Virus record (IMG/VR): IMGVR_UViG_3300029183_000248
Span: 1 to 31,850 of that record
From: a virus
Lineage: Duplodnaviria; Caudoviricetes
Strand: one strand, 5' to 3'
Length of the DNA stretch: 31,850 nucleotides
Part shown: one piece after another, positions 1-22,272 of the stretch
Layout: every line of letters begins with the position of its first letter
Numbering within the stretch: the stretch's first letter is position 1
Program-made: the position numbers and the translations under genes
Notes under the pieces: generated by a model
What the model was told of the DNA's origin: nothing
The model's database searches: none
Seen by the model: the letters and a program-made list of their open reading frames with translations, nothing else

Positions 1-216
1 CCCCTTCCGCAAGTACCAGCTTACTATGATCGCAATGATCGCCGGGATTGACCCGGCAACAGCGCCAGCGGTCCGCGCCTTCACCTGAAGAGTAGCAACA
101 CTCACTTCAAGCTTCGAGATATTCGCAGCCATCTTGTCCGCTTTCATCTCGATCCGCTCAAGGTCTCCGAGAACCTTCTTTTGGTAGGCGTTCCAGCCGT
201 TATCCCCTGGCGTCAT
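1..216 (-). CDS. Small coiled-coil protein with C-terminal TM helix (XhlA/holin-like); 3' end runs off the window
   Basis: Not in the ORF track. ATG at 216 lies 1 nt after the TAG (218-220) of the upstream gene. It reads MTPGDNGWNAYQKKVLGDLERIEMKADKMAANISKLEVSVATLQVKARTAGAVAGSIPAIIAIIVSWYLRKG: heptad-like N-part, hydrophobic helix, basic tail. Sits at the usual lysis-gene position after the fibres. Confidence 0.7.
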   Translation of the reverse strand, partial: MTPGDNGWNAYQKKVLGDLERIEMKADKMAANISKLEVSVATLQVKARTAGAVAGSIPAIIAIIVSWYLRKG

Positions 217-217
217 A

Positions 218-877
218 CTAATTCATCTCCCGAATGCTTTTCTGCAGGCTCCCTATGTCCCCGCGAATGTCGTAGATCTCACTCCGCGCGGCATGAAGAG
301 CGTCAACCAACGGGCTTTTCTTTTGTAGCGCATACCCTCGTGCAACAAAAGGAAATACCGACACGACACCCAGAAGATACAACAGACCCTGTGGCCACCA
401 AACAACAGAGATCACGATACTTGATACGGGAATAATGACCCCGAGAATCTTCCACCAAAGCGGAATCCCACCAGGATCACCAACACCGACCTGAGACACT
501 AAGCGAGAAGCGTCTTGGTGCGCTCCGTACATGTAGAGAGGCTTCCCGTCTTCGTCTCTTTCGATCGCTCCCCGGCAAATCACCCAGACAGTAGACCCGT
601 CTTTGTGAAGGTACCGGACAAGCAAGTTGTATCGAGTTCCGTGTTCCAGGTGGTTTCGAAATGCAGCCTTGGCCCGATCCGCGTCGTCCGGGTGGATCAG
701 CCGAAGAAATTCCCCGGCCTTGTTGGCAATCTCATGCTCCTCGTACCCGAGCGTTGCTTTGAACTTTGGACTGAACCACTCGTCTAGCTGTTCGAATGGA
801 ACCTTCCCTAACTGAGTCAGGTCGATCACCCAGACACCGTCAGTAAACAGGTCCGCGCGCCTTTCGAATTCCAGCAT
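218..877 (-). CDS. PAS-domain membrane protein (PAS/PAC, two TM helices, short C-terminal coiled coil); possible holin or lysis regulator
   Basis: PAS_3-like motifs GVWVIDL, FSPKFKATLGY, LIHPDD, RYLHKDGSTVWVICRG, DEDGKPLYMYGAHQD. Hydrophobic hairpin LWWKILGVIIPVSSIVISVVWW-PQG-LLYLLGVVSVFPFVARGYAL. ATG 877 follows AAGGAGAGGGG and is preferred over GTG 907. Confidence 0.85.
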   Translation of the reverse strand: MLEFERRADLFTDGVWVIDLTQLGKVPFEQLDEWFSPKFKATLGYEEHEIANKAGEFLRLIHPDDADRAKAAFRNHLEHGTRYNLLVRYLHKDGSTVWVICRGAIERDEDGKPLYMYGAHQDASRLVSQVGVGDPGGIPLWWKILGVIIPVSSIVISVVWWPQGLLYLLGVVSVFPFVARGYALQKKSPLVDALHAARSEIYDIRGDIGSLQKSIREMN

Positions 878-941: not shown

Positions 942-971
942 AAAAACTGCGATTCGTACGTTCGTACGAAT
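942..971 (-). terminator. Inverted repeat followed by a T-tract; possible intrinsic terminator or operator
   Basis: ATTCGTACG-TT-CGTACGAAT at 952-971. On the minus strand it is followed after CGCAG by TTTTTT. Lies in the gap between the tail genes and the PAS gene. Confidence 0.4.
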
Positions 972-984
972 TTCCTTACTCCTC

Positions 985-1503
985 TCAAACCAACGCCTTA
1001 GACTTCTCTCTCTGAACCGCCTGCGAAGACTCCGTCAAGATGGTGCGGTAGCTGCAGTTGCGGCAGCGCATCGTCTTCGTCCCTGCGTCCGTGTCGATCG
1101 AGATCGTCTCAAAGCTGCGCCAGAAGCAGTTCGTGCAGATCGGACCGATCGACCACATGTCGTTGTCGTAGCTCGCATCGTCCGCCTCTTCGGTCAGCGT
1201 ATACACACGATCCGTGGAAACGTCAGCAATCGTTTCTGCGACCACGATCAGGTCCACGGTGATCGTAGGATCTGTCCCGGTCTCGTTCCACAGTAGAAGC
1301 GGGAGATGATAAAGGGCCGCCTGGACAGTTGCGATGTTCGCCGCGCTCATTACGAACCTGGCGAACGTGGCTTCCGTGTAACCGTCTGCATTCACCGTCT
1401 GTGTTTCTCGAAGGTCGAGGAAACTGCTGCTGTATGTAGTCAGGCCGTCGTTGCTCTCGAACGTTCCGTTCGTAACGACACCCAATGGAATCACAATCTT
1501 CAT
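985..1503 (-). CDS. Hypothetical protein with C-terminal CxxC...CxxC metal-binding ribbon
   Basis: ATG 1503 overlaps the upstream TGA (ATGA), giving MKIVIPLG..., 172 aa. C-terminus has CTNC and CRNC. Confidence 0.7.
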   Translation of the reverse strand: MKIVIPLGVVTNGTFESNDGLTTYSSSFLDLRETQTVNADGYTEATFARFVMSAANIATVQAALYHLPLLLWNETGTDPTITVDLIVVAETIADVSTDRVYTLTEEADDASYDNDMWSIGPICTNCFWRSFETISIDTDAGTKTMRCRNCSYRTILTESSQAVQREKSKALV

Positions 1504-2270
1504 CTCACACCCATGAACGACATCGAAATGCCCTTCCAGTTCGTGCCTGCGAACGCGATGACAGAAAATCGATCGCCCCACGCAAATCCCCAGTCCTCTG
1601 CAATTGACAGTGACTTCATTCCACCAGTTGTCTTGTCAAGAACTGCGGTACCAATCGACGACGAACTGTTCTTGCTCATAACAACGGTGAGATCGCTGGA
1701 GGGACTTCCAGAAATATCCCCCTCAATCACGAACGATCCTCTGTTCTTCGTAACCCCAGTGCCGAAGTTGGATCTGAGCCACACGGTGAACGGGAACACC
1801 ATCGCCCAGAGCGTTGTCGGGTTTGGCCCAAGGGTTCCCGGGTAGTGATGGGACCGGACGAATTCACTGCCGCCTATCGTGCGCACATTGGTTCCGTCGT
1901 ACCAGACACTGATCGTGCCCTTTGCATGAATCTCCGGCTGCGGATCTCCGGAATGACTGGCCGCCGTAATCCTGAGAGTGTTGTTTGAGTCGTTGTAGAA
2001 TGTCGCCCGCCCCTTCTTGGGACGAGCAGGAAGCGTAATAACATTCTCGGGGACGAGAGCGGCGACTTCGTCTCGCACCCAGAAGGCACCGTTCCGAACC
2101 CAGTCCTCGTCGGACAGGCTAATCGCATTCGCGTCGGCCGCGTGAAACGTGATCGTCTTACACCCCGCGATCGCGCTCGCGACCTCCCCTGTCGCACGAT
2201 TGAACGCGTCGTGAGCTACGTTCTCATGCTCCCAGAGATTGCTGATCTGTAGGTTGTCACTACGAGACAT
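1500..2270 (-). CDS. Tail fibre/tail-tip accessory protein, DUF2793-like, paralog 2
   Basis: N-terminus SDNLQISNLWEHENVAHDAFNRA. Shares blocks with the upstream gene (KTITFxxADANAI, SDEDW, TFYNxSNNTLRIT, DGTNxRTxGGSEF). Follows the GTA-like tip genes. Confidence 0.7.
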   Translation of the reverse strand: MSRSDNLQISNLWEHENVAHDAFNRATGEVASAIAGCKTITFHAADANAISLSDEDWVRNGAFWVRDEVAALVPENVITLPARPKKGRATFYNDSNNTLRITAASHSGDPQPEIHAKGTISVWYDGTNVRTIGGSEFVRSHHYPGTLGPNPTTLWAMVFPFTVWLRSNFGTGVTKNRGSFVIEGDISGSPSSDLTVVMSKNSSSSIGTAVLDKTTGGMKSLSIAEDWGFAWGDRFSVIAFAGTNWKGISMSFMGVR

Positions 2271-3020
2271 TTACCGCACTCCGATGAACGTCACCGCAAT
2301 CAGGTCCGCTCCCTGCAGGTTGGACGGCGTATGGATTTCAAGGGTGTCGTCATACGCAAAACCCCAATCCGTGGTGATGTCAACCGTACCCAATCCGCTT
2401 GTGGCAAAGTCGATCGTTCCGATCGTGGTTCCGTTCTTCTTGAGGGTCAAAGAGAACGCGGACGAAGGGGCAGTGTTTGCGAACGCAACGCACGTCGTAC
2501 GGCTTCTGGTTGCAACGGGTGACGTCCCCGTGTTTGCCAGTAGCCAAACAGTGAAGGGCATCTGCATGGCCCAGACAAGGGACGACGTTGCCGGTCCATC
2601 GAGAAACGCAGTCTGAATGAACTCGCTGCCTCCAACCGTGCGAATGTTCGTGCCATCATTCCAGACTGTCAGCGTTTGACCGTGCTGGATCTCGGGTCTC
2701 GGGTCACCCGTGTGCGTTGCAGTCGTGATACGAAGCGTGTTGTTGCTGTTGTTGTAGAAGGTGGTAAGTCCCTTCTTGATGTTCGGGCACGTGATGATGT
2801 TTTCGGGTGTCTCTACAACAACATTGTCCTCGATCATGAACGCGTTATATGTCTGCCAGTCCTCGTCCGAAATCGTGATTGCGTTTGCGTCGGCCGACTC
2901 GAACGTGATCGTCTTGACCTCGGAAAGTACCGAATCGATCGCGGCGAGAGCTTCGTTGATCTTGATGTGCTTATTGTTTTCAGAACCGGTCAACTGTGGA
3001 AAGGCTAGATTGGCACTCAT
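2271..3020 (-). CDS. Tail fibre/tail-tip accessory protein, DUF2793-like, paralog 1
   Basis: N-terminus SANLAFPQLTGSENNKHIKINEALAAID resembles the DUF2793 NLxLP...KHVTHNEAL..LD motif. ATGA overlap with the megatron-like gene. Confidence 0.75.
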   Translation of the reverse strand: MSANLAFPQLTGSENNKHIKINEALAAIDSVLSEVKTITFESADANAITISDEDWQTYNAFMIEDNVVVETPENIITCPNIKKGLTTFYNNSNNTLRITTATHTGDPRPEIQHGQTLTVWNDGTNIRTVGGSEFIQTAFLDGPATSSLVWAMQMPFTVWLLANTGTSPVATRSRTTCVAFANTAPSSAFSLTLKKNGTTIGTIDFATSGLGTVDITTDWGFAYDDTLEIHTPSNLQGADLIAVTFIGVR

Positions 3021-6000
3021 GAGAACAACTCCGTTGTGTCCTTGTTACGAATACTTACGTTTTGAATTCTTGAAAAACCACGCCCCACTTGCGACGAGAG
3101 TTGGATCACGCGTACATACACATTCAGGGTCGTCGAATCGACAATCCCGTCTTCCGTCTGATCGGCCACAGTGTACACGTACCGCTTGTCCCCGATCAGA
3201 TTTGATCCGGCCGTGTGGAAGATGTAGAGCGCACCGGAACTATCGTGCACATAAAGAATGACCTCGTACTCTTCCGAGTCCTCGAAGAGTGGTGCCGTCG
3301 GACGCAGGTCTTTGATCTGTCCGTCAACGCGAGTCCTTCGCTCCCACGTGATCCAGATGTCGCCGTTGTTCTGCCTCTCCGCAGCAATGCCGACCGGTGC
3401 ATACGGCCGCAAGCTGCTCCCCTTCGGGGTAACCGTGTAAACGGGCGCGTCCTCGAAGTCCTGGTTGAAGTGAACGACTCTCATTCTTGCCTCACCCCGA
3501 TCGAACATTCCGAGAGGGATCCGGACTACGGCCGGGGACGAGTTGCGATCGAGAAGAACCCACTCCACGCCCTTCCTCTCCGCAATATATGGTCCGACGT
3601 TCACCAGGTCTGGCGTCTCGGTCCCCTCTGCCATGGTGTCTGTTCCTCTCATGCCGCGCAACAGGTCCGAGATCTCGTAGCTATTGTCTCCTGTGTTGTT
3701 GACGGTTTTGAAGTACAGAAGCTCAACCTCGCCGTTGTCGAACAAGAACAGGATCCGGTTTACTCCGCTCCGCCACTCGTCGTCTGTGATGGTCGCAGGC
3801 TCTTCCGTCTGGTAGACAGGCTGCAGCGGAATCGTTGTACTTTCGTCCGGCAAAAGAACGCCGTTGTTTACGGTCGTGTCGTTTGTCCCGCCAGTGAAGT
3901 TCAAGTCGAGTAACATGGGCGACAGCCACTGGTGCGTTGGATCGACGACGCCCCACGAAGACTCTCTACCGACGCGACCCATCCTGGCCCAGTACGGAAT
4001 CGACACTCCAAAGATCTCGAACTCCAGAAGCACCCACACAGTTGCACTGATGAACGGGACATCGTCGTCCCTGGTTCTTGCAACAAACACGTGCAGGTTG
4101 TACCAGAGCCTGTCTTGCGCCTCCTGGTCGTCTTGTGTGTTTGGTATGTCGAGCATCATGATCTTGAGTTCTGGATAATCTCCGATCGCGCTCCCGGGGG
4201 CTGTTCCCGAATCTCCCTCAGCCGCACTCACATACTGTGCCGGGGACTGACACACCGCAGAGAACGCGAGCGCTAACCCGGCACCTGTGTCATTCGCCGT
4301 GATCCGCGCCGTATAGATTGTCCCGTCATCCATGTTGACCGTCACAACATCACCAGCATCGAGCACGACAAACTGCCAGTGCGAGTTGAACTCGTAGATG
4401 CACCGCTCTGTCCACGCCCCCTCAAGAAGCGCGGTCGCCTGCTGGCGCGCAACGTCGTCGGTCGATACGATCGGAATGTCTACCACGATCTTTTCTTCTG
4501 CCCACATTGCACGATCAGGGTATCGATTTCTCCTGGCCGGTTCGGCTCCCTGCTGCATGTCGTTGGCCAGGTTCTTGAAGCGGACAAGCGCCTCTCTCGG
4601 AAGCTCCCAGTCCTCCAGGCGATCGCTACGAAATGCGATCGAACCGTCCTCTCTGGAGATTCGGATCAAGTCAGACTCGCTGATAGTCATCACCGAAGTC
4701 GTGTTCTTTCTCTGGAACTTGATGATCCCGTCAGACTCGATCGCCTGGCACTGGAAATACTGGAACAGTTGTTCGAGAGCAGCGCGCGCGCTTGCCTGCC
4801 TCCCTACCGTGTATCCGTGCACCGTGATCGACGCGAGGTCCGTCACATCGATCTCCGATGCCTGAAGACCTACTTCTAGTGCAAGATCGCTGACGACGTT
4901 ATCTAGCGTGGCGTACTGAATACCAGTTCGGAACACGGGAAGCGCGACAAGTCCGCGCCTCTCCGCAATCGTCGTCTCAGTGGCAGCCGGATAGTACAGT
5001 CGCTGCAATTGGGAATCGAAAATGTACGGGTCAAAGGATCCTTCGCCACCGGCAACACCGTAGTCAACGGTCTCCTTCACGGAACCGTCCGATGGATCCA
5101 CTGTTACCACGTGGCTAGTCGTACTGGACTTGAACGAATAGATGTTCCGGTTGACTCGACTCCCCAGATCCTGGCCCGGGTAATACGAAACGTCGCTCTT
5201 CCATGGGAACGTAAGAGTGTTAGGGTCGTACTTCATGAACTGGATCGTGGATCCGTCCTTAGCACCGAACATGACCGTGTCGTCGGTGTTGTCATACACA
5301 AACCCGTCACCACAATCGTCGAGCGATGTGGCACCAGAAATAATGTCTGAGTCTTCCAGTGTTGCAACCAGGTCCACGGCCACGGTTTCGTTCCCATGGT
5401 TCCCTGTAATACGAACCCGGTACAGGAGCACGTCGTCAGACGAAGCCACGGAGTAGATGTCGCCAGTGAGAATCCACGCCTCCAGCTTGTCTTTCGTCGA
5501 GATGCCGCGACAAGCGGCGATGATTCGGTCGCCACTGAAAGAGAACGAGTCATTCCCCGTACTCCAAACAGTGTCCCAATCGCTTTCACGCAGAATACCG
5601 ACACACTTGTTCGACTGGTGTTTGTTCGCCCCGAGGATGTATGTGTATGGCTCTTTCCCGTTTGACCGTTCCCAGACCAGGGGCACCATGATGTGAAGCT
5701 GTGGGATGTTCCACGTCCCACCCGAGAAGGTCCAGTTGTACGGACCTCCCGATGCGCCCGACGTTCCGATCGTATCCTTCACACTCATCGTGTACTCATC
5801 AATCTTGACGACTCGAACACGGTCGGGGTCGTTAGAGTTCACGGCAGAGATGTGAACGATGTCATGATTCGGAAGCACACACATGGCAGGTGGGTATGCA
5901 CCGCCTCTGACCAGGTGCTGACCGGAAGAACTCGTGATCTGGTTCATGCGCGAGGACTCACGCACTCGATTACCGATCCCGTCGTCACCCTTTTCCGTGT

Positions 6001-6862
6001 ACTGAAAGTCGCTTCCCGAGACAGTCAGGTCCAACGGGATCGATCGGTATCCGTTCTGCGACTGATCATGTGCAGGCTCTGACACGTGAAGCCAACCCTG
6101 GCGCATCAGGAAGTCGATCGCAAAGATGTTAGGTTCGTACTCGCCCTCAACAAAACTGCTTCCCTCTGCAGGTGTCTCCATGTCGGTTTCGTAAACCGTC
6201 AGCGGATTACTGGCCGACTCCATCGCGATTTCCGCAAGGACCTCAGGAATCTTGTTTCCAAATCTCTTGAGAGGAACGTTCTCGAAGACGATGTATACCT
6301 CTCCTCGATAGCCAGGACTCAAGGCCGCGCCGACGTCGGCCTGCATCAAGGAGTCTGCGGTTTGGGTCTCAGATCCGTTGTAGAAGCGGAAGATCAGACT
6401 CTGGTCCTTATCGAAGATGTTCTCTTGCACTCCGGAGACTTGGTCGTACACGAGCGTCCCTGCGAACCAGATGCGCGTGACACCGGCCGCGACACCTTCT
6501 CCAAACCCAACGGCCCAGTTCCCGTAGTATTCGAATTCCTGAATCTTCAGGCCGCCCTCTTCTTCGCGCTCTACGACGGTCTCTGTTTCTTTCGGATCGA
6601 TCCACCAGAAGACGTTCCCCGCAGATCGATCGAGTCCGTACCGTCTCGGTCGCGGCACCCCAAGCGCACTCGTCTGCGTCTGCTGATCTCCCAGACGCGG
6701 ACCCTGCACAATGTCATCGCGGCCGCGCGAGAAGTGTCCAGACGCATCGATGACGCCGCCCACGGAAGACCCGAGCGCCCACCCTGCGGCCGCACCGCCA
6801 AGGCCACCCGCAAGAGCGCCAACGCCAGCACCGATTACACCGAATACAACAGATGCCGACAT
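3017..6862 (-). CDS. Central tail-tip/host-specificity protein (GTA megatron-like, Phage-tail_3 domain)
   Basis: Gly/Ala-rich N-terminus. GPRLGDQQTQTSALGVPRPRRYG...GNVFW, PGYRGEVYIVFEN.PL..FGNKIP, LLRGMRGT and C-terminal LRPYAPV...ITWERRTR match GTA g15-like proteins. Follows NlpC/P60. Confidence 0.85.
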   Translation of the reverse strand: MSASVVFGVIGAGVGALAGGLGGAAAGWALGSSVGGVIDASGHFSRGRDDIVQGPRLGDQQTQTSALGVPRPRRYGLDRSAGNVFWWIDPKETETVVEREEEGGLKIQEFEYYGNWAVGFGEGVAAGVTRIWFAGTLVYDQVSGVQENIFDKDQSLIFRFYNGSETQTADSLMQADVGAALSPGYRGEVYIVFENVPLKRFGNKIPEVLAEIAMESASNPLTVYETDMETPAEGSSFVEGEYEPNIFAIDFLMRQGWLHVSEPAHDQSQNGYRSIPLDLTVSGSDFQYTEKGDDGIGNRVRESSRMNQITSSSGQHLVRGGAYPPAMCVLPNHDIVHISAVNSNDPDRVRVVKIDEYTMSVKDTIGTSGASGGPYNWTFSGGTWNIPQLHIMVPLVWERSNGKEPYTYILGANKHQSNKCVGILRESDWDTVWSTGNDSFSFSGDRIIAACRGISTKDKLEAWILTGDIYSVASSDDVLLYRVRITGNHGNETVAVDLVATLEDSDIISGATSLDDCGDGFVYDNTDDTVMFGAKDGSTIQFMKYDPNTLTFPWKSDVSYYPGQDLGSRVNRNIYSFKSSTTSHVVTVDPSDGSVKETVDYGVAGGEGSFDPYIFDSQLQRLYYPAATETTIAERRGLVALPVFRTGIQYATLDNVVSDLALEVGLQASEIDVTDLASITVHGYTVGRQASARAALEQLFQYFQCQAIESDGIIKFQRKNTTSVMTISESDLIRISREDGSIAFRSDRLEDWELPREALVRFKNLANDMQQGAEPARRNRYPDRAMWAEEKIVVDIPIVSTDDVARQQATALLEGAWTERCIYEFNSHWQFVVLDAGDVVTVNMDDGTIYTARITANDTGAGLALAFSAVCQSPAQYVSAAEGDSGTAPGSAIGDYPELKIMMLDIPNTQDDQEAQDRLWYNLHVFVARTRDDDVPFISATVWVLLEFEIFGVSIPYWARMGRVGRESSWGVVDPTHQWLSPMLLDLNFTGGTNDTTVNNGVLLPDESTTIPLQPVYQTEEPATITDDEWRSGVNRILFLFDNGEVELLYFKTVNNTGDNSYEISDLLRGMRGTDTMAEGTETPDLVNVGPYIAERKGVEWVLLDRNSSPAVVRIPLGMFDRGEARMRVVHFNQDFEDAPVYTVTPKGSSLRPYAPVGIAAERQNNGDIWITWERRTRVDGQIKDLRPTAPLFEDSEEYEVILYVHDSSGALYIFHTAGSNLIGDKRYVYTVADQTEDGIVDSTTLNVYVRVIQLSSQVGRGFSRIQNVSIRNKDTTELFS

Positions 6863-6864
6863 CT

Positions 6865-7311
6865 TTACTCTTCCTCGTGCGTTTCAGTTACAAGTGAGAA
6901 GGCGCGCCTGAGCGAAGACCGCCAGCGTGAGTCGATATGCACTTCCACAACTCTTCTCGTAATGTCATGCGCATGGATGAACGCGGGTCGATTCTTCAGC
7001 GTCGTTCTAATACCGAAATGGTTGTGGAACGGACCGTGCTTGAACACCAGGAGATCTCCGTCCTCTACGTCATCCAGGGCTACAGGAGTGAAGCAACTTC
7101 GCAAGATGCTGACCAGGTTTCCTCCGGAGTAAGCAACGCGGTACAGGCGATCAATGTCATCCGGAAGATCAATCTTCTCCGCCTGGCAGACCTTCTCAAC
7201 AAACTGCACGCAGTCCACGGCACGCGATGTACTACTACGAATCCCTCGTGCGGGAATTCCGACAAGGGATCGAGCGGTCTTAACGATGGATGTCTTTTTA
7301 GGATGGGACAT
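6865..7311 (-). CDS. NlpC/P60 family tail-associated peptidase (GTA g14-like)
   Basis: ARSLVGIP, catalytic DC (AVDCVQF), GDLLVF, HFGI, FIHA. Canonical position between hub and megatron. Confidence 0.85.
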   Translation of the reverse strand: MSHPKKTSIVKTARSLVGIPARGIRSSTSRAVDCVQFVEKVCQAEKIDLPDDIDRLYRVAYSGGNLVSILRSCFTPVALDDVEDGDLLVFKHGPFHNHFGIRTTLKNRPAFIHAHDITRRVVEVHIDSRWRSSLRRAFSLVTETHEEE

Positions 7312-8992
7312 TGACGGCCCTCGTTATCGCATCGGCTCCCGGCACATTGGGAAAACCACGGAAGTTGTCGATGTTGTCGAACTTGGCAACGCAGGTATCA
7401 ACCTGGCCATCACAGCCTGGCGAAATGTATCCGATCTGACCCGGCCCGATCGGTTCGATGGGCTGCCTGTGTAGCTCAACCTCGAAGTAGATGTCTGGGA
7501 CTACTGACGTATAGAGCGTGGAGTTCTTGACCTCATACGCGCGACCGTCAGTGTTGACGTCACCGGTCTCAAACACAAGATTCCCATGATTCCACCAGCC
7601 GCTTCCTTTTCCCGTAGCCCACGAAGAACTACCGTTCAGCTTCGCTACGAACGTTGTCGGAGACAAAACGGTCTCGACCGTGAACTGCCTGGACCACGCT
7701 TCCCGACATGTCCAAGTAACAGACCCATCCGTGGTCGTGTTCCCGACAGTTGTGTCAAACGCCACCGCAAGTCCACTGCTCGTACCCGCAGTCGTACACT
7801 CATAGATTCTATTTTCATATTGCTCGTGTGACTCATGAAGTCGAAATGCAGGGATCCCCGCGTAAAGACTCATCGCCACAGAATCAAAACAGGAGTGGAT
7901 CTCAGCCCCCGTGATTCCGAATACCATCAAGCGTATCCGAATGTATCTTGCCGCTGCAGGAATGGCGACGTTCGTAACGCTTCTTGTTGTCCAGGTGTCG
8001 AGTGGTGAAATAGCTTCTGCCGTCGAATCGTAGAGATCCGAGATGAACGCCCTGTCCTCATCAAGGAACTCGACCTTTACCCGACCCTCGTCGTTGATAT
8101 CGTTGTTGGCGCGTTCAATCGAAAAGTCCGCGCGAAAGTTACCGTCTGCACCCTGCTGCACGTTGCGAGCGAAGTTCCCGACGGCACCACCAATATCAAC
8201 GTCTTGCGAACACTCACCGTCATTCCCCGTTCCCCCCTGAAGCCAACCGGTCCCCTCTTCTGCAGACAGTCCATCGTGAGCAGAGTCCCAGAGATAGAAC
8301 TGAATCCCATCCGCGATTGTCCAACCCGGGATCTCGGCCCCCGATACACCCGTTCCCGTGTGCTCTGCTTCCGTCCCATGCTCGAACCGTGGATTCTGAA
8401 CGACCTGATCATAAACCTTAGTGCTGGCCGCCGTAGCTACTCGAACGAAATCACCCAACGCATAAGCGGTTGAGTTTGCACGCAAGTCCGGCTTGATCGG
8501 GATCCCACACTTCGGGTGACCAACCTCGACGCGGCACAGAGTCTGGTACACGTCGATCACATTCTGGTCGAGCGCCGCGATCATCCCGGAAAGCTGAATC
8601 TCAAAGGTGCCGTCGTCCCTCCTCGTCGTCTTCCCCACACGCCCACGTCGAAGTTCGACAACACCCATGCTCACGTCTTCGTAATTGATCAGCGAGATCA
8701 CGAACTCTGCGTGATCGTAGTACCCGGCCTCTAGTTCCTTCTCGTCGATGCCGGACTCTGAGAAGATTCCCAGCACCTGAAGGTTGTCGATCGACAGGTC
8801 AGACGTTCCCTCGATGTTGGTGCGGCTGAATCCCGTGCTCGCCAGGTACGCGTTAGACAGGTATTCGATGTCCACGTCGAGAGACGTGAAATATTTCGCA
8901 GTTCCATCTTGCCGCACGAGAGACCAGATGTGCGTGACTGTCGTCGTGGACTGCGCGAGATGCGTAGTCATCGCTGTGCTGGCAGTCTTCAT
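7298..8992 (-). CDS. Baseplate hub protein DUF2163/BR0599 with inserted carbohydrate-binding-like domains
   Basis: N-terminal W.LVRQDG...FTSLD.D, CRVEVGHPKC, and C-terminal PGCDGQVDTC..KFDNIDNFRGFPNVPG (four conserved Cys). At 564 aa it is much longer than the basic hub. Confidence 0.9.
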   Translation of the reverse strand: MKTASTAMTTHLAQSTTTVTHIWSLVRQDGTAKYFTSLDVDIEYLSNAYLASTGFSRTNIEGTSDLSIDNLQVLGIFSESGIDEKELEAGYYDHAEFVISLINYEDVSMGVVELRRGRVGKTTRRDDGTFEIQLSGMIAALDQNVIDVYQTLCRVEVGHPKCGIPIKPDLRANSTAYALGDFVRVATAASTKVYDQVVQNPRFEHGTEAEHTGTGVSGAEIPGWTIADGIQFYLWDSAHDGLSAEEGTGWLQGGTGNDGECSQDVDIGGAVGNFARNVQQGADGNFRADFSIERANNDINDEGRVKVEFLDEDRAFISDLYDSTAEAISPLDTWTTRSVTNVAIPAAARYIRIRLMVFGITGAEIHSCFDSVAMSLYAGIPAFRLHESHEQYENRIYECTTAGTSSGLAVAFDTTVGNTTTDGSVTWTCREAWSRQFTVETVLSPTTFVAKLNGSSSWATGKGSGWWNHGNLVFETGDVNTDGRAYEVKNSTLYTSVVPDIYFEVELHRQPIEPIGPGQIGYISPGCDGQVDTCVAKFDNIDNFRGFPNVPGADAITRAVNVPS

Positions 8993-8996
8993 CTTC

Positions 8997-9650
8997 CTAG
9001 TCGGTCTCCCACAGTTCTACCAGTTCGATCTTCTGTGCGCGCCCGAGCATGTCCGCATTGTCGTCCGCGTTCTCACCCGGGTACACGAGTTCGAAGTCGA
9101 TCTTGTCTTCTACGAACCGCACGCAAACGTCGAACTCACACTGGATGTCAACCGGACCAGTAGGAGTGGAGTTGAAGGTGATTAGTCCAGTATCGTAGTC
9201 AACTGTGTAATCGCTCCCACCGCCCTCTGTTTGAACAACTGAATTGTCTCTGACCACCAACGTGCCATTCACGATCTTGACAATCGTTCGGTCGAACGTG
9301 AACGCGTCTTTCGTGTAGGTCTTCTTGGCCTGGTAGACAACGTTCGAACCACTGATTGCTTCGATCACCTGGTACCCATTCAAGTCGTCTGGGATCTGGT
9401 AATCCGAGTGATCTTTGAATCGAAACGAATACGCCCGGCCGCGCACGACCAAGAACAGATCTCTGATGTCTCGTAGATTCGTCATCGTCCTCACGCCATA
9501 CGCCACATCCCAGAGACCGCGAACCCGGCTGTTGTTCTGGTTTCGCTTTTCGTGTCCGCTGTCCAACTCGATTACGGTCGTGTCAAACATCGGGCCACCA
9601 CGCGCACCTACCTCAACGTCTGTTGGTAGCCGTACATCTCGGAAAGACAT
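8997..9650 (-). CDS. Distal tail protein DUF2460 (TIGR02217-like)
   Basis: F.DVRLP...GARGGPMFDT.VIELDSGHEKRN, RGRAYSFRFKD..DY, EFDV.VRF. Directly follows the tape measure. Confidence 0.9.
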   Translation of the reverse strand: MSFRDVRLPTDVEVGARGGPMFDTTVIELDSGHEKRNQNNSRVRGLWDVAYGVRTMTNLRDIRDLFLVVRGRAYSFRFKDHSDYQIPDDLNGYQVIEAISGSNVVYQAKKTYTKDAFTFDRTIVKIVNGTLVVRDNSVVQTEGGGSDYTVDYDTGLITFNSTPTGPVDIQCEFDVCVRFVEDKIDFELVYPGENADDNADMLGRAQKIELVELWETD

Positions 9651-12314
9651 CTACGATCTCCTCCATTCTCTCTCGGCAGCGCGCCGCGCCGACCGTGCCA
9701 GTTGCGGCGCAGATCTCCGGAACATGTCCGGGTTGTCGGTTTTGATTTGCTGAACCACCGTGACGCCTCCCTGCTTTGCAGCGAAATCATCTGGTGTAGT
9801 CCCGAGCTTGGTGACGAATTCCCCGCCAGGATTTGCCGTCCCGATCGGAGCACCTATAATCTCTCCACTTCCTGAGTTCCCACCTGAGAATGCACCAGAC
9901 AGAGCAGAGGTCAAAGTACCTACGATGAATTTCCGAAACGCCAGGCGCGCCAGGTCTGCCTGGATCGAATTGACAAGGTCCTTGAAGGTCACCTTTTGAT
10001 TCGTCGCGAACTGCACAAACAGGTTTTCCAGTCCACGCACGGAATTCGTAAACGTTCTTTCAAGCTGTCTCGCCGCATCACCATAAAGATTCTGGATGCG
10101 CAACGCGGAATCCCTGATCTTCCCGCGCGCCGTGTCGGAGAACGCGCGATCCATTGCCTCTCTCGTCTCATCGAACAGGTTGGGTAGTTCCTCTGCGCGA
10201 TCGTGTACATGAGCAAGAGCGCCTTCAAGATTCTCCAGTCCATTCACTGCGTCCTGAATGCCTGAAATGTCTTGTGGGAACTCAAGCAGTTTTTCAGGCG
10301 CTTCCTTCCCGTCGAGCGTCACGCTTGCCAGTGCACCCTTCACCGCATCCAGGCTTGCCTGGAGACTGTCCACGGCCGCGATCTGGTCGGCTACGTTGTC
10401 TTTCACGTCAGACGTTACGAAGTTGAACTGATCGCGGTACTCCATGATCTCGCTCTGGACGCCAACGATCGAAGCTCCGACCTTCGCAATGTCTTCTTCT
10501 GTCTTCGCGCCTGCAACAGCGGCCTGAATCTGTTTGATCGCGCGGCCAGTTTTCTGGAACTGGGTTTCAATCTCCCGCTGCTCCCTGAGTGCATTTTCTG
10601 TCAGGCGCATCGCTGCCACCATCGCTGCTTCATCGACGATCGCTGACGAGTCAAAGTTGATTGGAAGGAACAGGAACCTCAGAACATCGGCCAGGCTCTT
10701 CACCTCGATGCCGATCGCGCTCAGAGATCCAATGACACGGGACCTGAGTTCACCTGCGACGAAATCGTTGAAGTCACGGGCAGCCGACGCCGCGTCCGCA
10801 AATCCCTGCCGAATTCCGGACAGGCCGTCACTCATTACAACTGCCGTCCCACGGAAGATGTCTCCGAGAGAAACAGTCACCGAAGACATGCTGGAAGTTT
10901 CCTCTCGCATAAAGACGATGGCATCAGCCCACTTCATGATCTCTTTTCTGAAGAGCACTACACCGACGAGAGTCGATCCGATTGCTGCAGCGAATGCACC
11001 GATCGGGTGAAGCCGGATTGCCGTGAACAGGAGAGCAATGTTGCTTCTCAACGAACCGATCGCACCCACACTCTTTCTGCCAATGCCGTCCGCAATCAAG
11101 GTCGCAAGTCCACCAAGTGCACGCGCGGCCAACTTCACCGCACCAGAAGCAAGGACAGTCCCAAGCACGATCGCCATTGTCTTCACGACCGGCACAAACG
11201 CTTCCACATTCGACGACAAGGCGCGTATCGCGGTAGCCGTAGATCTCACCGCAGAAGTCAACGTACTCTCCGCTCCGAGATCTCCGATCTCAAGGATCAG
11301 ACCCTGAATCGCAGACTGCACGGCAAAGATCGCACCGTTCAGATTGTTGTCCATCGTTGCGGCCACATTCTTCGCGAAGTCATCCAACTCCTGCATCTCC
11401 TGGCCCATCTCTTTGAGCTTCGGAATGGAGTTGACCAGGACGTTTACGGCCGCTGCGGTTCTCTTGTCGAACAATTCAACGGACTCTGCCACGCCAACGT
11501 TCGCAGCCTTCAGCTTCTCAAGCACGGGGATCAACCCGTCCGTCTCGATGCTGACTCCGCCCAGAGTTCTCTGCAGTTCCTCTGACGGCGCAGCGAGCTT
11601 GACCAGAATCGACCGAAGACCAGTACCGGCAAGAGTCGCCTGAATCCCTGCATCGGAAAGAGCGCCGATCGCAGCCGACGTGTCCGATACCGAGAGGTTG
11701 AGTCCAGCAGCAATTGGTGCTGCGAACTTCATCGCCTCACCAAGCTGCTCGACATTCGTGTTTGCGTTGTTAGCTGTGAACGCCAGGACATCGACCACAC
11801 GATTCGTCTTTGCCGCATCCAGCCCGAAACCGGTCAGAATGTTCGACGCAATGTCCGCTGCTCGCCCGAGATCAAGCGCACCGGCCTGCGCAAGCAGAAG
11901 GGTTCCCTCTACCGCCTCTAACGACTGCGCGGCACTGAACCCTGCCCTGGCGAGGAACGTGACACCCTCTGCAGCCTGTGTCGCGGTGAACCTGGTCGTA
12001 CTACCGAGACGCTTTGTCTCGTTACGAATCGCCTGGATCTCTTCTGCCGTACCACCCGAAACAGCACTGACCGTTGACATGGCCTGCCCAAAGTCTCGAA
12101 TGACACCGACGCTTCCCTGAAGCGCGAAGATGGCGGACCCTATTCCTACGACAGAGGCCGCCGTCCTGGCGAAGTTGTTCTGGAGAATATTGAGTCTTTG
12201 GGTGCCGTCGCGCTCGATGTCTCGGAAGATCTTCCTCGACTGGTTTCGTCCAGCGCGAAGAGGTCCAACATCTGCCCCGACCGTGGCAAAGAGTTCACCG
12301 ATCGAAAGTCCCAT
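9651..12314 (-). CDS. Tail tape measure protein (TP901-family core)
   Basis: 887 aa, Ala/Gly-rich helical. TTRFTATQAAEG..FLARAG, LLLAQAG.LDL..AADI, TNVEQLGEAMKFAAP, AGTGLRS. Follows the chaperone pair. Confidence 0.95.
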   Translation of the reverse strand: MGLSIGELFATVGADVGPLRAGRNQSRKIFRDIERDGTQRLNILQNNFARTAASVVGIGSAIFALQGSVGVIRDFGQAMSTVSAVSGGTAEEIQAIRNETKRLGSTTRFTATQAAEGVTFLARAGFSAAQSLEAVEGTLLLAQAGALDLGRAADIASNILTGFGLDAAKTNRVVDVLAFTANNANTNVEQLGEAMKFAAPIAAGLNLSVSDTSAAIGALSDAGIQATLAGTGLRSILVKLAAPSEELQRTLGGVSIETDGLIPVLEKLKAANVGVAESVELFDKRTAAAVNVLVNSIPKLKEMGQEMQELDDFAKNVAATMDNNLNGAIFAVQSAIQGLILEIGDLGAESTLTSAVRSTATAIRALSSNVEAFVPVVKTMAIVLGTVLASGAVKLAARALGGLATLIADGIGRKSVGAIGSLRSNIALLFTAIRLHPIGAFAAAIGSTLVGVVLFRKEIMKWADAIVFMREETSSMSSVTVSLGDIFRGTAVVMSDGLSGIRQGFADAASAARDFNDFVAGELRSRVIGSLSAIGIEVKSLADVLRFLFLPINFDSSAIVDEAAMVAAMRLTENALREQREIETQFQKTGRAIKQIQAAVAGAKTEEDIAKVGASIVGVQSEIMEYRDQFNFVTSDVKDNVADQIAAVDSLQASLDAVKGALASVTLDGKEAPEKLLEFPQDISGIQDAVNGLENLEGALAHVHDRAEELPNLFDETREAMDRAFSDTARGKIRDSALRIQNLYGDAARQLERTFTNSVRGLENLFVQFATNQKVTFKDLVNSIQADLARLAFRKFIVGTLTSALSGAFSGGNSGSGEIIGAPIGTANPGGEFVTKLGTTPDDFAAKQGGVTVVQQIKTDNPDMFRRSAPQLARSARRAAEREWRRS

Positions 12315-15285: not shown

Positions 15286-15678
15286 CTACCTGTCTATCGC
15301 GCCATACACTTCAATACCGGCCTGCTTCTCAGCAGACTGCATGTTCGCGAGCGTCCCCGAGGTATCGATTAGAAGCGCCGTCTGACCGAACACGGTCGCG
15401 TTGAGACGTTCGCCCATCTTGCCCATGTCGTGCTTGAGACTTGCCTGACCGACCTTCTTCTGCACGATCGTGTTCGAAGTCTTCTTCGTAAGCGTCACGA
15501 TGTGTGCCGCTATATTCAGTTCGAGATCGACTAACGTTTCATCACTGTGCCCGACCGACGTGAGGTTCGTCGTCACAATGTTGTTCGCGATCTTTACGTG
15601 CAGGTCGATGTCCTCAGGGGTGAGCATCGTGTTCTTCATGTACCGAAGGACCGCTGCGCTTTCGACTCGACAACTCAT
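15286..15678 (-). CDS. Head-tail adaptor protein
   Basis: LELNIAAHIV, KVGQAS, LNATVFGQTALLIDTSGTL motifs; first neck gene. Confidence 0.8.
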   Translation of the reverse strand: MSCRVESAAVLRYMKNTMLTPEDIDLHVKIANNIVTTNLTSVGHSDETLVDLELNIAAHIVTLTKKTSNTIVQKKVGQASLKHDMGKMGERLNATVFGQTALLIDTSGTLANMQSAEKQAGIEVYGAIDR

Positions 15679-16415
15679 CTTCTTGCTTCCTCTCTGATTG
15701 ACTCGTGAACGTCAAACTGTCCTGCGTGCCACAGCGGCTGGATCATCGCGTCAGCTACTTTGTCCTGGTCCCACGGGAGAGACAGAAACTTGGCCATGTC
15801 CCGAATGTGGACCATGTCTCCCTTCGAGAAGACCCGATTCGGCCAGAACTCCTGCACTTTCTCCACTCTCTTGACCTGGTCGATCCTTGATTCGTACAGC
15901 CTCACCCACTTGAGCGGATCTCCCATCCGGGTGTCCTTCTGAAGAAACGACGCCTGCTCCCGCAGTCTCTTCAAGAGAACGCCCTTATCCTTCCGTACAA
16001 CCACCCAGCGAGCGTCAGGAAACGCCTGTCGTATGATCGGCCATGCCAGGAGAGCTTCCGGACCCGCGTACAGCCACGGCCCTCCGCTGTAGCCCTGATC
16101 CCAAATGATCGACAGGCACTTCCTACGCCAGGCGCGCGCTATCTTCTCGTCCATGGACTGGCACCGGCCCACCAGGCTCGTTTCTGTTCCGGCCCCCATG
16201 TGGTGGAACCCCATGCCCAAGAAGAACGGCTTGACTAGCTCGTGCAGGATCGTGCTGTTCGACCAGAAGAGATCCACCTTTCCGCCCTTGGCGGCGCGCG
16301 TCCCCCACACACCAAGAGCGCCCAGCGCCACCCACGCTAGCCACTCGGAAGATCCTGGCGCGCCCGTCACGATGATCGGGTCTGGTGTGCTTGGCCTAAC
16401 ATTCATCTTCGTCAT
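15675..16415 (-). CDS. Sulfotransferase-fold protein with a degenerate PAPS-binding loop
   Basis: PIIVTGAPGSS (cf. PI.ITG.PRSGT), GPW, AFPDARWVVVRKD (cf. FP.AK.I...R), FLSLPW. Confidence 0.65.
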   Translation of the reverse strand: MTKMNVRPSTPDPIIVTGAPGSSEWLAWVALGALGVWGTRAAKGGKVDLFWSNSTILHELVKPFFLGMGFHHMGAGTETSLVGRCQSMDEKIARAWRRKCLSIIWDQGYSGGPWLYAGPEALLAWPIIRQAFPDARWVVVRKDKGVLLKRLREQASFLQKDTRMGDPLKWVRLYESRIDQVKRVEKVQEFWPNRVFSKGDMVHIRDMAKFLSLPWDQDKVADAMIQPLWHAGQFDVHESIREEARR

Positions 16416-17125
16416 TCTTTCGGGTGCTCCTGGTGAAACGCGAGCGCGTTCCCTAGAAACACAAACCGAAACTTTCCATCTGTGAGACGAGCGGCAAGGT
16501 CACCGTCGTTGTTCTTTGCGATGTCTTCTCGGTACCCATCAACTCTCTCCCAGTCATCCTTGTGCATCCCCCCGAGAAAGAGGAACGGCATCGGGCGCTC
16601 CGGACCAGTGAACAACCGCACGCGATATTCGTCGCTGATCATGGGTGGATTCTGTGTCCCCCCGTCGGTCGGCGGCCGCAGTTCTTCGTGATCGGGGAAC
16701 TTCGTCTTCAAATCCTCCGACAATATGTCGATCGACGCAGTTGGACCGTCGTATACACGAGCGATCGCCATGGCACCGCCATGCTTGCACGTCTCGTAAA
16801 TCGGAGTGACGCAGTCGTTGAGATGGTAGACCTCACCGCCCTGTTCGATCAGAACGTCACCGCTAGCAAAGCCGCGCGCACGATTGAAGATCCCGCCCGG
16901 GTTCTTGAGATAGGAACCGGCACGACTTGTTCTTTGCAAGACCGCGTTGTCCCCCAGATGCGAGAACCATCGATCGAGAATGATCGGCGTTTGGTCAGTA
17001 GAACCATCGTCAAGGATTACGATTTCGACGTCGGTGCGGTGTGCATAAAGACGACTCAGAGACTCCAGGGATTTTTCGAGTTGCGTGGCTCTGTTGCGCG
17101 TGGCTATTACAATGCTGGTGTTCAT
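16412..17125 (-). CDS. Glycosyltransferase family 2 (GT-A)
   Basis: SIVIATRNRA, VEIVILDDGSTD, FNRA...ASGDVLI, WERVDGYRE, AFHQEH. Confidence 0.88.
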   Translation of the reverse strand: MNTSIVIATRNRATQLEKSLESLSRLYAHRTDVEIVILDDGSTDQTPIILDRWFSHLGDNAVLQRTSRAGSYLKNPGGIFNRARGFASGDVLIEQGGEVYHLNDCVTPIYETCKHGGAMAIARVYDGPTASIDILSEDLKTKFPDHEELRPPTDGGTQNPPMISDEYRVRLFTGPERPMPFLFLGGMHKDDWERVDGYREDIAKNNDGDLAARLTDGKFRFVFLGNALAFHQEHPKE

Positions 17126-18033
17126 TTTGCGTATTTCCTTCTCTGCCAGTCCACCGTTCTCTGGATCCCGTCTTTGATCGGTGTGTCCGGCTTGTGTTTC
17201 AGTTCAGTCTGTGCTCTTCGTGTATCCGGGTTCTTCTTGACGGCATTGTTGTAATCTAGCTTCCTGTAATCGATATGCCCGTCATCCGCACCCAGTGCTT
17301 CCAATACCATGTCGCTTGTTTCTCTCATCGTAAAACTGCGATCTCCGGCAATGTTGTACGCCTTGCCATGCCGAAAGTTCTTCGGAATGTTCGCGAGTGT
17401 ACGCACCGCGTCTTCGATGAAGATCGGCGTGCGCTTGTTGTCTTCGTAGACGGTGAGCGGCAGGCCGTGCATCGCGTGATAGATGAACCGACAGATCGCA
17501 CTCCGATATGGGTGATAGTCCTCCTCCGGACCGTACGTGTTGAAGAGTCGCACTCGAACGACTCGATTCCCGTACAGCTTGGCGAAGTTCATGACTTGCT
17601 GCTCATTCACCCACTTCGAGATTGCGTAGTCGTTCAGTTGGCGAATCGGCTCTTCGTCCGTGACAGACTCAAACATGCACGACTTGTAGTCTCCGTAGAC
17701 TTCGGAACTGGAGAACGCAACCAGGTCGAACTTCATGGACCTCTGCGCCTCAAGAACGTTCCTCGTACCGACAACGTTCGTCCGCCACAACTGCTCGTAA
17801 TGGTCTTCCCCGTTGATGCGCCCGAATTCCGCGGCCGCGTGATACACCAGGTGCGGATCAACCTCCTTCATCATGCGATCTACCTGGCGGAATTCACCTA
17901 CATCACAACGGTGGCTCCACCAATGGTCGCTATGAAGAAGGTCGAAGCTAAAAACCTCGTGCCCCTTTTCCCGAAGAAGCCTGCAGAGTGGCAGGCCGAT
18001 CGTTCCGTTCCCGCCTGTCACCACGATTCTCAC
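17122..18033 (-). CDS. NAD-dependent nucleotide-sugar epimerase/dehydratase (extended SDR)
   Basis: VTGGNGTIG (GxxGxxG), VYHAAA, NVVGT.NVL, SSSEVYG, YAISK (YxxxK), RLFNTYGP. Confidence 0.95.
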   Translation of the reverse strand: MRIVVTGGNGTIGLPLCRLLREKGHEVFSFDLLHSDHWWSHRCDVGEFRQVDRMMKEVDPHLVYHAAAEFGRINGEDHYEQLWRTNVVGTRNVLEAQRSMKFDLVAFSSSEVYGDYKSCMFESVTDEEPIRQLNDYAISKWVNEQQVMNFAKLYGNRVVRVRLFNTYGPEEDYHPYRSAICRFIYHAMHGLPLTVYEDNKRTPIFIEDAVRTLANIPKNFRHGKAYNIAGDRSFTMRETSDMVLEALGADDGHIDYRKLDYNNAVKKNPDTRRAQTELKHKPDTPIKDGIQRTVDWQRRKYAK

Positions 18034-18608
18034 TCGTATTCACCCCACGTCGCGTAGAGAACACGGTAACTCGGGCGGACATACTCACCGATACGCCGCT
18101 CACCAAGAGTCCAGAGCGCGCGAACGTGAAAGTCCTGGTTCTCCAGGTCACCGATACTCCACCCGCTCTTGTGTCCCTGATACGGATTCGATTCGAAGTC
18201 AGTCCCGTAACCTCGATTGATTGCAATCGTGGACTCGTTCGGGTGTTGCGGAAGGTCTCCCTCTGGCGTGAAGAGAATGATCTTCTTCGCGATCCTCTTC
18301 GCTTCCTTGATCAGATCCTCTCCGTCAGCCATCGTCATGTGCTCGATGACATCGATCATCAGGACCAGATCTGCATACCCTTCACTGAGGGTCGGTAGGA
18401 TCTCACGCGCATCTCCGTACCGATACTCCGCGCCCTCTTCTTTATCCATCTGCAGGCGCTCGTAGTCCTCGAAGATCTCGATCCCCTCTCGCCTTCTGAC
18501 AATGTCCGAGAACGCGGCCATGTAGTCCCCGAACATGCACCCGACGTCCAGGAGCGACTTCGCACCCGCCACGTCATTGCGCATCACTTTCACAAGTCTC
18601 TGGTCCAT
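18030..18608 (-). CDS. Class I SAM-dependent methyltransferase
   Basis: SLLDVGCMFG (motif I), GIEIF, GDA, DLVLMIDVIEHM, FTP. Confidence 0.9.
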   Translation of the reverse strand: MDQRLVKVMRNDVAGAKSLLDVGCMFGDYMAAFSDIVRRREGIEIFEDYERLQMDKEEGAEYRYGDAREILPTLSEGYADLVLMIDVIEHMTMADGEDLIKEAKRIAKKIILFTPEGDLPQHPNESTIAINRGYGTDFESNPYQGHKSGWSIGDLENQDFHVRALWTLGERRIGEYVRPSYRVLYATWGEYE

Positions 18609-19018
18609 CAGTCGCCCCCATCCTTGTCAGTATTCATTTTAATATTGTCGCGCCCCACCAAGGCTTCCACACCATGGTGAATCCACTTGTCGGTGTGTGC
18701 GGGTTGCACGATACGGTCGAACGGCAACAACTTCTTGCGCGCATCTGCTCGATCCCTCATGGCCTCCAGGACGTTGTCGATCTTCTCTTTGCACTCATCC
18801 GAACTCATGTAGTCATCAAGGAACAGAAACCCTTCCGGGTCGTCTCTCTTGTCGATCACATGCAGATGACCAGCAACCTCACCGATAGACCCGTCTTCAT
18901 TTATATTTCGCGGCAGACTAAGAGCAAGGCCGCACGGGTGTAAAAGAACTCGGTTTATTTCCTGGATAAATCCAAGATCTTGGAAATCCTTTAGGTCCAT
19001 GTTTTTGGTTTCGCTCAC
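18608..19018 (-). CDS. Hypothetical phage protein
   Basis: Coupled by overlaps on both sides. Contains GFIQEINRVLLHPCGLAL and D.RDDPEG, which resemble an uncharacterised phage family recalled from memory and not checked. Confidence 0.7.
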   Translation of the reverse strand: MSETKNMDLKDFQDLGFIQEINRVLLHPCGLALSLPRNINEDGSIGEVAGHLHVIDKRDDPEGFLFLDDYMSSDECKEKIDNVLEAMRDRADARKKLLPFDRIVQPAHTDKWIHHGVEALVGRDNIKMNTDKDGGD

Positions 19019-19758
19019 TGGATTCTCCTATTGTCTACGACCCACGGCTCGTTTACCTGGTTCGGCCGTGGCTGTCCATGAAAACAGACAACCATTGCGT
19101 CTTCCGGTAAGCCGCGATCGCGACAGTTGATCTTGTAGCTGTAGATCCCATCAACCTGATCCTGCCAACTCGACCACGTTGCCTTTCGTCTCTCCAGCGC
19201 CGACCTTATCCACTCCTGATCTCCGATGTGCGCGTGTCCGTTGCGATCGTGCATGCGCAACCGAGCACCGGCCTTCGATGTCCTGTAAAGAGGGGCAAAG
19301 TCTCGAACGAAGTCTTCCCACAGGAACGCGACGTCGTTCGGATTTCTCCACCCCATCAGCCCAGACTGCAGCATCGGATGTTTCGGTATGAAGGTTCCGA
19401 GAAAGATTGGATCTTCGGCGTGGAGAACAGTGTCTACAAGAGGACCGAGATCTCCGCAGATGACCGTGTCCAGGTCGAAATAGATGCACGGCCCACGGTC
19501 CAGCGTGAACATCTCCATCTTCGACCACCACCCGGGTAGGTTCCGTCGGAGACGAACCAGTTCCGCGCTTACATTCAGGTCCTCGAAGTACCCGAAGTAT
19601 TCTTTCCCCAGATTCGAAAGGACGACGAACCGATAGTCCACGCCCACGGGCATATGCCGCTGCAAGTTCGCAAGCAATCGCGTGACGTCGTGTGCACTGA
19701 AATCACCATCGCGATGCTCACTGAGAACGCATATCAAGTTTACTGTTTCGTCTTGCAT
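19015..19758 (-). CDS. Glycosyltransferase (GT-A, GT8-like phage family)
   Basis: LPGWWSKMEMF, IYFDLDTVI (DxD), SGLMGW, GDQEWI, SYK, VVCFHGQPRP. ATG 19758 after AAAGGGA. Confidence 0.85.
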   Translation of the reverse strand: MQDETVNLICVLSEHRDGDFSAHDVTRLLANLQRHMPVGVDYRFVVLSNLGKEYFGYFEDLNVSAELVRLRRNLPGWWSKMEMFTLDRGPCIYFDLDTVICGDLGPLVDTVLHAEDPIFLGTFIPKHPMLQSGLMGWRNPNDVAFLWEDFVRDFAPLYRTSKAGARLRMHDRNGHAHIGDQEWIRSALERRKATWSSWQDQVDGIYSYKINCRDRGLPEDAMVVCFHGQPRPNQVNEPWVVDNRRIQ

Positions 19759-22129: not shown

Positions 22130-22272
22130 TTCCAGCACCTTTCTCTGTGCCCCCGGAAGGTGTTCACCCAACCTTGAGCTATTCGATAAACGAATCGTGT
22201 TTTTCTGTTTCGAATTTGAGCGGGAATCGTGCGGTACAGTCGTGCAGTCAGATTAGTTCGGGTCTGTTCGCC

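Follow-up and report, generated by a model that had tools for sequence, protein, structure and literature searches.

Gene content of the locus

The window analysed here is a stretch of 31,850 bases that makes up the whole contig of a tailed phage. Its sequence is present in DNA runs from a single aquatic metagenome study, and no RNA runs carrying it were found. Genes on the minus strand are ordered from terminase through head, neck and tail genes to the contig's left end. Directly downstream of the tail genes lies a gene that joins a PAS sensor domain to two predicted membrane helices, here called the PAS-hairpin gene, and 1 nt separates its stop codon from the ATG of the following gene. This placement was noted in an earlier model-made reading of the sequence (the earlier note), and it is borne out by the coordinates and by family matches. 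The contig terminates inside the last gene, ahead of the stop codon, which is why no lysis gene is visible in the window. The features of the region are as follows.

985..12314, minus strand: tail genes, comprising tape measure, DUF2460, BR0599, NlpC/P60, Phage-tail_3 and two paralogous fibre-like genes (family matches)
952..971, minus strand: terminator-like hairpin after the tail genes and ahead of the PAS gene (one found against 1.5 expected; fold z -1.8; not above chance)
218..877, minus strand: gene of the PAS-hairpin protein (P0001), 219 amino acids (open reading frame; singleton cluster)
500..877, minus strand: PAS_3/PAC domain, residues 1-126 (Pfam, structural model, Foldseek)
461..499, minus strand: Gly/Pro-rich linker, residues 127-139, modelled as coil from residue 131
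398..460, minus strand: predicted membrane helix 1, residues 140-160 (hydropathy, model)
329..388, minus strand: predicted membrane helix 2, residues 164-183 (hydropathy, model)
221..313, minus strand: amphipathic C-terminal helix, residues 189-219, predicted to be cytoplasmic (sequence, model)
227..231, minus strand: GGGAG ribosome-binding-like site of the partner gene, within the last codons of the PAS gene (sequence)
1..216, minus strand: partner gene of the GW family, with an N-terminal helix, a coiled coil and a C-terminal membrane helix, truncated where the contig stops (profile match)

One public contig extends 352 nt beyond base 1 of the window, and one matches positions 89-1700 with zero differences. 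The PAS-hairpin fusion is therefore not an obvious frameshift, with the caveat that the matching contig may be the window's own source run.

Architecture of the PAS-hairpin protein

The PAS/PAC domain is complete, as the earlier note had held. Residues 35-119 match PAS_3 (PF08447) in Pfam with an E-value of 2.9e-22 (79.2 bits against a gathering cut-off of 25.6). An AlphaFold2 model of the 219-residue protein, built on a 35-row alignment, shows a complete PAS fold for residues 11-130 at pLDDT 93-97; the fold obtained from the single sequence was poor, at pLDDT 57.5. The domain keeps most of the conserved residues of its subfamily, and its best match among solved structures is 3mr0 (Foldseek, E 3.5e-10), the title of which names no ligand. 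LOV photoreceptors carry their flavin-adduct cysteine within an NCRFLQ motif. This motif is absent from the window protein, in which the sole cysteine, C101, lies in VICRG, and a LOV photoreceptor was therefore rejected.

Between the PAS domain and the hairpin, the model places a Gly/Pro coil, not a helix, at residues 131-139. Helices follow at residues 140-159, 164-185 and 189-218, all at pLDDT 52-70. Hydropathy peaks in 19-residue windows fall at residues 144-162 (2.08) and about 164-183 (1.63), the hairpin is flanked by basic residues (K143; R180, K186 and K187), and its WWPQG loop is uncharged. The two-helix hairpin with an amphipathic tail, as originally described, is thus matched by hydropathy peaks and modelled helices, and the proposed N-in/C-in topology fits the hydropathy and the flanking charges; both are predictions. 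By the same predictions, the protein has the two membrane helices and the N-in/C-in arrangement of a class II holin.

Neither Pfam nor NCBIfam detected a kinase, GGDEF/EAL or DNA-binding domain in the 219-residue protein, again as first stated. The NCBIfam kinase models that do match cover the PAS part alone, and no kinase, GGDEF or EAL remnant follows the PAS domain.

The GW partner family

The product of the partner gene belongs to a family named GW for the pattern of its N-terminal helix, GW..W/Y...VL.EL.RL. A profile made from 66 other members gives it 68.7 bits (E 1e-20), compared with 5.4 bits for the best of 500 shuffles, and it matches phrog_1103, a PHROG of unknown function, at E 4e-6. 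Its C-terminal membrane helix lies at residues 51-69, with a hydropathy of 1.88. The partner gene and the PAS gene may well be translationally coupled.

The family was extended from one member to 63 proteins. Pattern scans of viral contigs then returned 82 stretches and at least 119 stretches (about 270 estimated for the second scan), corresponding to 68 and 86 distinct proteins. Two loci without a usable reading frame and merged duplicates were removed from the first set, and 12 rejected stretches and merged duplicates from the second. A special role for the W-to-Y change seen in the window's GW helix was discarded, as at least 119 stretches also have tyrosine. Among GenBank phages, two queries gave no GW match and a third gave one weak, unrelated match. 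A scan of species genomes detected GW in two contigs of one Anaerolineales assembly, which are too few to name a host. The GW proteins, coiled coils with a tail anchor, make up a previously undescribed phage family.

The partner gene had been described in the earlier note as XhlA- or holin-like. In architecture this label fits, as the product, like XhlA, is a small coiled coil that carries a single membrane helix at its C-terminus. At the level of sequence families, however, it does not hold: none of 65 GW members matches XhlA in Pfam at E 0.01, the PHROG 'hemolysin' match of the window product reaches just E 0.11, and holin matches among GW members are single weak ones only.

A sensor–GW gene pair in diverse phages

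Sensor domains recur beside GW. A PAS profile made from host proteins was run on 154 GW loci, covering 8327 reading frames from both strands, and all 32 hits fell in a gene adjoining GW (the hit in one locus, L261, was placed in a separate check). Pfam adds four PAS loci missed by the profile, and in locus L234 some PAS genes lie two genes from GW. Removal of 25 short loci, one false hit (L226) and one locus with a bad reading frame (L153) left 127 loci, which were collapsed by shared neighbours into 82 phage groups. A sensor domain stands beside GW in 39 of these groups (cupin in 20, PAS in 17, receiver in 3 and GAF in 1), with the cupin profile built from 13 of its 20 hits. On this sequence evidence, the conserved unit is the pair of a sensor gene and a GW gene. 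In a quick tree, the PAS domains linked to GW split into three or more lineages; together with the grouping of the window PAS with host domains (below), this fits repeated recruitment of PAS domains into one slot.

Most GW-adjacent sensor genes, as well as many short genes without a sensor, share a conserved N-terminal helix with an LxxLT motif. In the 68-locus first set, on which the motif was also defined, the helix occurs in the frame just before GW at 35 of 68 loci and just after it at 4 of 68, against a background of 9 and 8 on the two strands of 427 kb. A score matrix trained on that set reaches 8 or more at 49 of the 86 second-set loci, compared with 4 of 321 other genes. The gap between the helix-bearing gene and GW is -41 to +15 nt in 73 of 80 cases. 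A complex prediction for the helix-PAS and GW proteins of L130 (2:2), a family pair and not the window pair, scored 0.08 against a mark of 0.32 and was given no weight.

The window contains a GW protein and, across the 1-nt gap, an adjacent PAS_3 sensor without an output domain, but not the LxxLT helix. The best score of the window protein is -3.8 against the mark of 8, no regular-expression match occurs anywhere in the window, and no helix remnant was found upstream of the PAS gene in any frame. The score matrix also gave no support to the C-terminal tail as a mimic of the LxxLT helix. Since the window protein has a hairpin where the LxxLT helix is missing, it may represent a self-tethered variant of the sensor subunit. 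As the protein is both a singleton and helix-less, the family evidence reaches it solely through gene order.

Individual loci show further features. In L234 (positions 1-2046), from a phage with a gp23-type capsid gene, the order after the head genes is PAS, a 64-residue membrane protein, GW, PAS, PAS and a membrane coiled-coil gene, an arrangement that is analogous but unrelated to the window fusion. The residues HxH...E...H are typical of metal-binding cupins, and they are kept by the GW-linked cupin at L189:3092-3484 and by 16 others. In a large phage, a PAS-GW pair has an ion-channel gene (L254:261-1148; Ion_trans, E 3e-24) at a distance of some 1.7 kb.

Relatives and origin of the PAS-hairpin protein

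The 219-residue protein is a singleton cluster in a collection of 15 billion proteins, and every non-self match is confined to its PAS part. This part has the fold of the PAS_3 domains located at the N-terminus of bacterial sensor kinases and cyclases (PDB 3mr0), and over the domain it shares 43-46% identity with relatives from metagenomes. Most of the 80 best such relatives are long host sensor proteins in which the PAS domain runs into extended cytoplasmic signalling regions. None of these 80 has a hairpin after the PAS domain (one, L083, has a single hydrophobic stretch far downstream). Together with the lack of a kinase remnant, this argues against a simple truncated host kinase, the origin that the earlier note had named as fatal to its own reading. 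Only one viral relative was found, as four identical copies. It is a PAS protein on its own, and the gene directly after it encodes a coiled coil with a membrane helix at the C-terminus, similar to the partner product. Among GenBank phages, the PAS query retrieved only a host-like gene in an unannotated record. One unverified phage record (OQ572411.1:20624-30947) holds apparent Pseudomonas chromosomal genes, including one for a PAS-GGDEF protein and two that we take to be ptsP and lgt, and is probably host contamination.

For the hairpin part, residues 118-219, no homologue was found in viral contigs, Atlas features, PHROGs or NCBIfam. No holin family matched these residues in PHROGs or NCBIfam, or the whole protein in Pfam. 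The hairpin did not align with the 64-residue membrane protein of L234, and its match to the GW profile had a probability of 0.7%. A search of 1.84 billion proteins used the whole protein and was dominated by multi-PAS proteins, so that it tests only weakly for relatives of the hairpin; among the 150 matches listed, only the self-match has a best stretch that passes residue 129. A LegC2/C7 match at E 0.006, scoring 15.5 bits where the cut-off is 350, was dismissed as a chance resemblance between helices.

One explanation of this pattern is a recent and largely inert fusion, in which a captured PAS fragment of a host kinase was joined to a small membrane gene or to newly coding DNA, with no sensing involved. 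The protein is indeed a singleton, and in a quick tree, to be read with caution, its PAS domain clusters with those of host proteins (SH-aLRT 91) on a long branch, the host sequences having been picked for likeness. In the same direction, the domain scores 93.9 bits with host PAS domains and no more than 73.2 bits with GW-linked phage PAS domains, in a comparison where the host set was likewise picked for likeness. Third-position GC content of the hairpin part is 0.53 over 93 codons, compared with 0.62-0.76 in nine other stretches. However, the PAS fold is complete and has retained most of its subfamily's conserved residues, and the gene has a ribosome-binding site of its own (AAGGAG/AGGGG at 896-886, 8 nt ahead of the ATG). 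Moreover, PAS is paired with GW in 17 phage groups, so the position of the window gene is unlikely to be due to chance. An inert fusion is accordingly regarded as quite unlikely.

Evidence for and against a role in lysis

The earlier note asked whether relatives of the PAS-hairpin gene occur with lysis genes. Some GW relatives do lie in true lysis cassettes. The cassette at L264:2585-4068 looks complete, with an M15-like endolysin, PAS, GW and GTA_holin_3TM; the order is cupin, GW, receiver and lysozyme in L163, and cupin, GW and M15 peptidase in L147. Nevertheless, a survey of same-strand reading frames of 90-420 residues within 2.2 kb of GW detected a wall-lytic enzyme near GW in just 8 of 82 groups, five with a sensor and three without (Fisher p 0.47), or in 11 of 82 once small two-helix genes were added. 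By a rough estimate, the rate of 8 in 82 is about what a 7-kb stretch would catch by chance, and this counts against the lysis reading. The survey covered about 255 of 321 cluster representatives and some others, the rest being left out by eye, and four of its nine enzyme calls (L128, L133, L141 and L264) were made by eye or motif.

The same sensor–GW module could have a membrane output other than lysis; it might, for instance, anchor the assembly of heads or tails, exclude superinfecting phages or interfere with signalling in the host. The 74 groups without a wall-lytic enzyme nearby point in this direction, as does gene order: in the largest group (32 T4-like loci), the sensor–GW pair adjoins the prohead protease, and at other loci it lies among neck, portal or terminase genes, both of which count against lysis. 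The host-sensor type of the window PAS domain also agrees with such an output. On the other hand, the lytic enzymes that are present mostly lie one or two genes from GW, and their detection is insensitive, as Pfam at E 1e-5 missed the L264 enzyme and holins shorter than 90 residues fell outside the systematic scan. The architecture of GW is, moreover, that of XhlA and gp24.1, as far as these are described in the available text of PMC6316719. A non-lysis output is possible, if doubtful, and by analogy a link between the module and lysis is plausible.

Comparison with two-component holins

In the portion of PMC6316719 available, SPP1 gp24.1 and PBSX XhlA are described as having one C-terminal helix, and killing requires a two-helix partner. 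The pairs PBSX XhlA/XhlB and SPP1 gp24.1/gp26 thus share with the window pair the combination of a one-C-terminal-helix protein and a two-helix protein at a late position. They differ in that no sensor domain is described for them in that portion, and in that the window has no XhlA profile match or visible endolysin. Mycobacteriophages provide a second parallel. In F1 mycobacteriophages (LysF1a/LysF1b; PMC13056207, in part) and in D29 (LysA2a/LysA2b), a one-helix regulator is reported to act on a two-helix protein, and in D29 the gene for this lysis regulator lies outside the lysis cassette (10.64898/2026.08.27.747656, in part). According to the same partial sources, these pairs resemble the window pair in combining a two-helix N-in/C-in protein with a one-helix partner. 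The helix of LysF1b, however, is N-terminal (N-out/C-in) and that of GW is C-terminal, and the accessible part of PMC13056207 has no PAS domain in the mycobacteriophage pairs, which were compared by description.

These parallels bear on a third explanation, close to the inference of the earlier note: that the hairpin works on its own account as a holin or antiholin of class II type, forming the XhlB- or LysF1a-like half with GW as the other half, and is gated directly by the fused PAS domain. The two N-in/C-in helices predicted from charge, at the end of the tail module, would suit this role, and so would the pairing of two-helix and one-helix proteins seen in SPP1 and PBSX and, apart from partner topology, in F1 mycobacteriophages (available parts of PMC6316719 and PMC13056207). 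In L157, L170 and L208, a small two-helix gene is found no more than two genes away from GW, and the series of PAS, 64-residue membrane protein with a short tail, and GW in L234 looks like a split analogue of the fusion. Yet these small two-helix neighbours occur in just 3 of 127 loci, the hairpin has neither a holin family match nor a relative, including the L234 protein, and a membrane helix follows the PAS domain in none of the 32 PAS hits at GW loci. The linker, furthermore, is a flexible coil in the model, which would favour tethering over rigid gating of the hairpin. Direct helical gating by the PAS domain is thus unlikely on the model, and a PAS-gated holin was lowered to a distinctly improbable explanation. 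Of the overall reading in the earlier note, what survives is an output-less PAS-hairpin protein beside a one-helix membrane protein; the identification of the hairpin as a holin was not supported.

A proposed mechanism

The explanation preferred here, though held tentatively, is that the PAS-hairpin protein is the sensor subunit of a two-gene module that acts on GW at the inner membrane and probably tunes the time of lysis. In typical members, the LxxLT helix would dock a soluble sensor on the GW helix. In the window protein, the hairpin and cytoplasmic tail would replace the LxxLT helix as a tether, so that the PAS sensor would be made in step with GW and kept at the inner membrane by the hairpin that it carries. 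The PAS domain might then read a cytoplasmic ligand or redox state and alter the association of the two membrane proteins. Taken jointly, a docking helix, a hairpin tether and PAS-controlled association seem fairly probable. That the output on top of these steps would be lysis, by analogy with holin pairs of one-helix and two-helix proteins, is put at slightly better than even. A bolder proposal is that many uncultured phages time lysis through an XhlA-like GW protein with plug-in PAS, cupin, GAF or receiver sensors, and that fusion of PAS to a two-helix holin half has here produced a signal-gated two-component holin; this is considered rather unlikely.

Signal-dependent systems in other phages

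The timing of holin action is usually viewed as set by the holin's own sequence, and T4 lysis inhibition is the main signal-dependent exception. If a widespread GW protein does accept PAS, cupin, GAF and receiver partners interchangeably, phages would have a general means of coupling a late membrane event to host physiology, in the form of a small module (about 70 plus 130-220 residues). The window gene would add a second mode of coupling, in which the membrane hairpin of a sensor without the LxxLT helix takes the place of the docking helix, and the window pair has the layout of known two-component holins, with a two-helix protein beside a one-helix protein. The PAS-hairpin gene is part of an undescribed phage sensor–membrane module, and through this pair a signal inside the host is likely coupled to a late membrane event, which may be the timing of lysis.

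Two characterised systems are instructive. VqmA has a PAS domain and a role in the choice between lysis and lysogeny. It acts by DNA binding, in contrast to the window protein, which lacks a DNA-binding domain and is predicted to be membrane-bound. Like the proposed window sensor, the VqmA of vibriophage VP882 is a phage-encoded receptor for a host signal (PMC8284805, in part). In T4, a soluble cytoplasmic partner tunes a membrane lysis protein, as proposed here, within the system of holin T and antiholins RI and RIII; the signal there is periplasmic and arises from superinfection, and no PAS, cupin or GAF domain features in the available part of the source (PMC8385771). What is accessible of PMC12781566 concerns host genes only. 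Among the titles and abstract openings searched, which took in few subscription journals, there was no published account of a PAS-hairpin lysis gene or a sensor–GW module; even with a non-lysis output, the module matches no system found in that literature.

Other genes of the contig

Several other genes of the contig deserve mention. The last gene of the tail module (985-1500, minus strand) has no family match, and its product carries two CxxC pairs at the C-terminus, resembling a zinc ribbon. Between the major capsid and neck genes, a block at 15678-20503 (minus strand) encodes a glycosyltransferase, an NAD-dependent epimerase, a methyltransferase and a sialyltransferase-like protein, and may possibly serve virion glycosylation. 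The major capsid protein itself (21155-22171, minus strand) matches DUF6260 and the encapsulin family Linocin_M18. Two head-region genes at 25378-27566 (minus strand) start with signal-peptide-like hydrophobic stretches, and the one whose product has 596 residues shows a weak match to polysaccharide deacetylase (E 7e-4).
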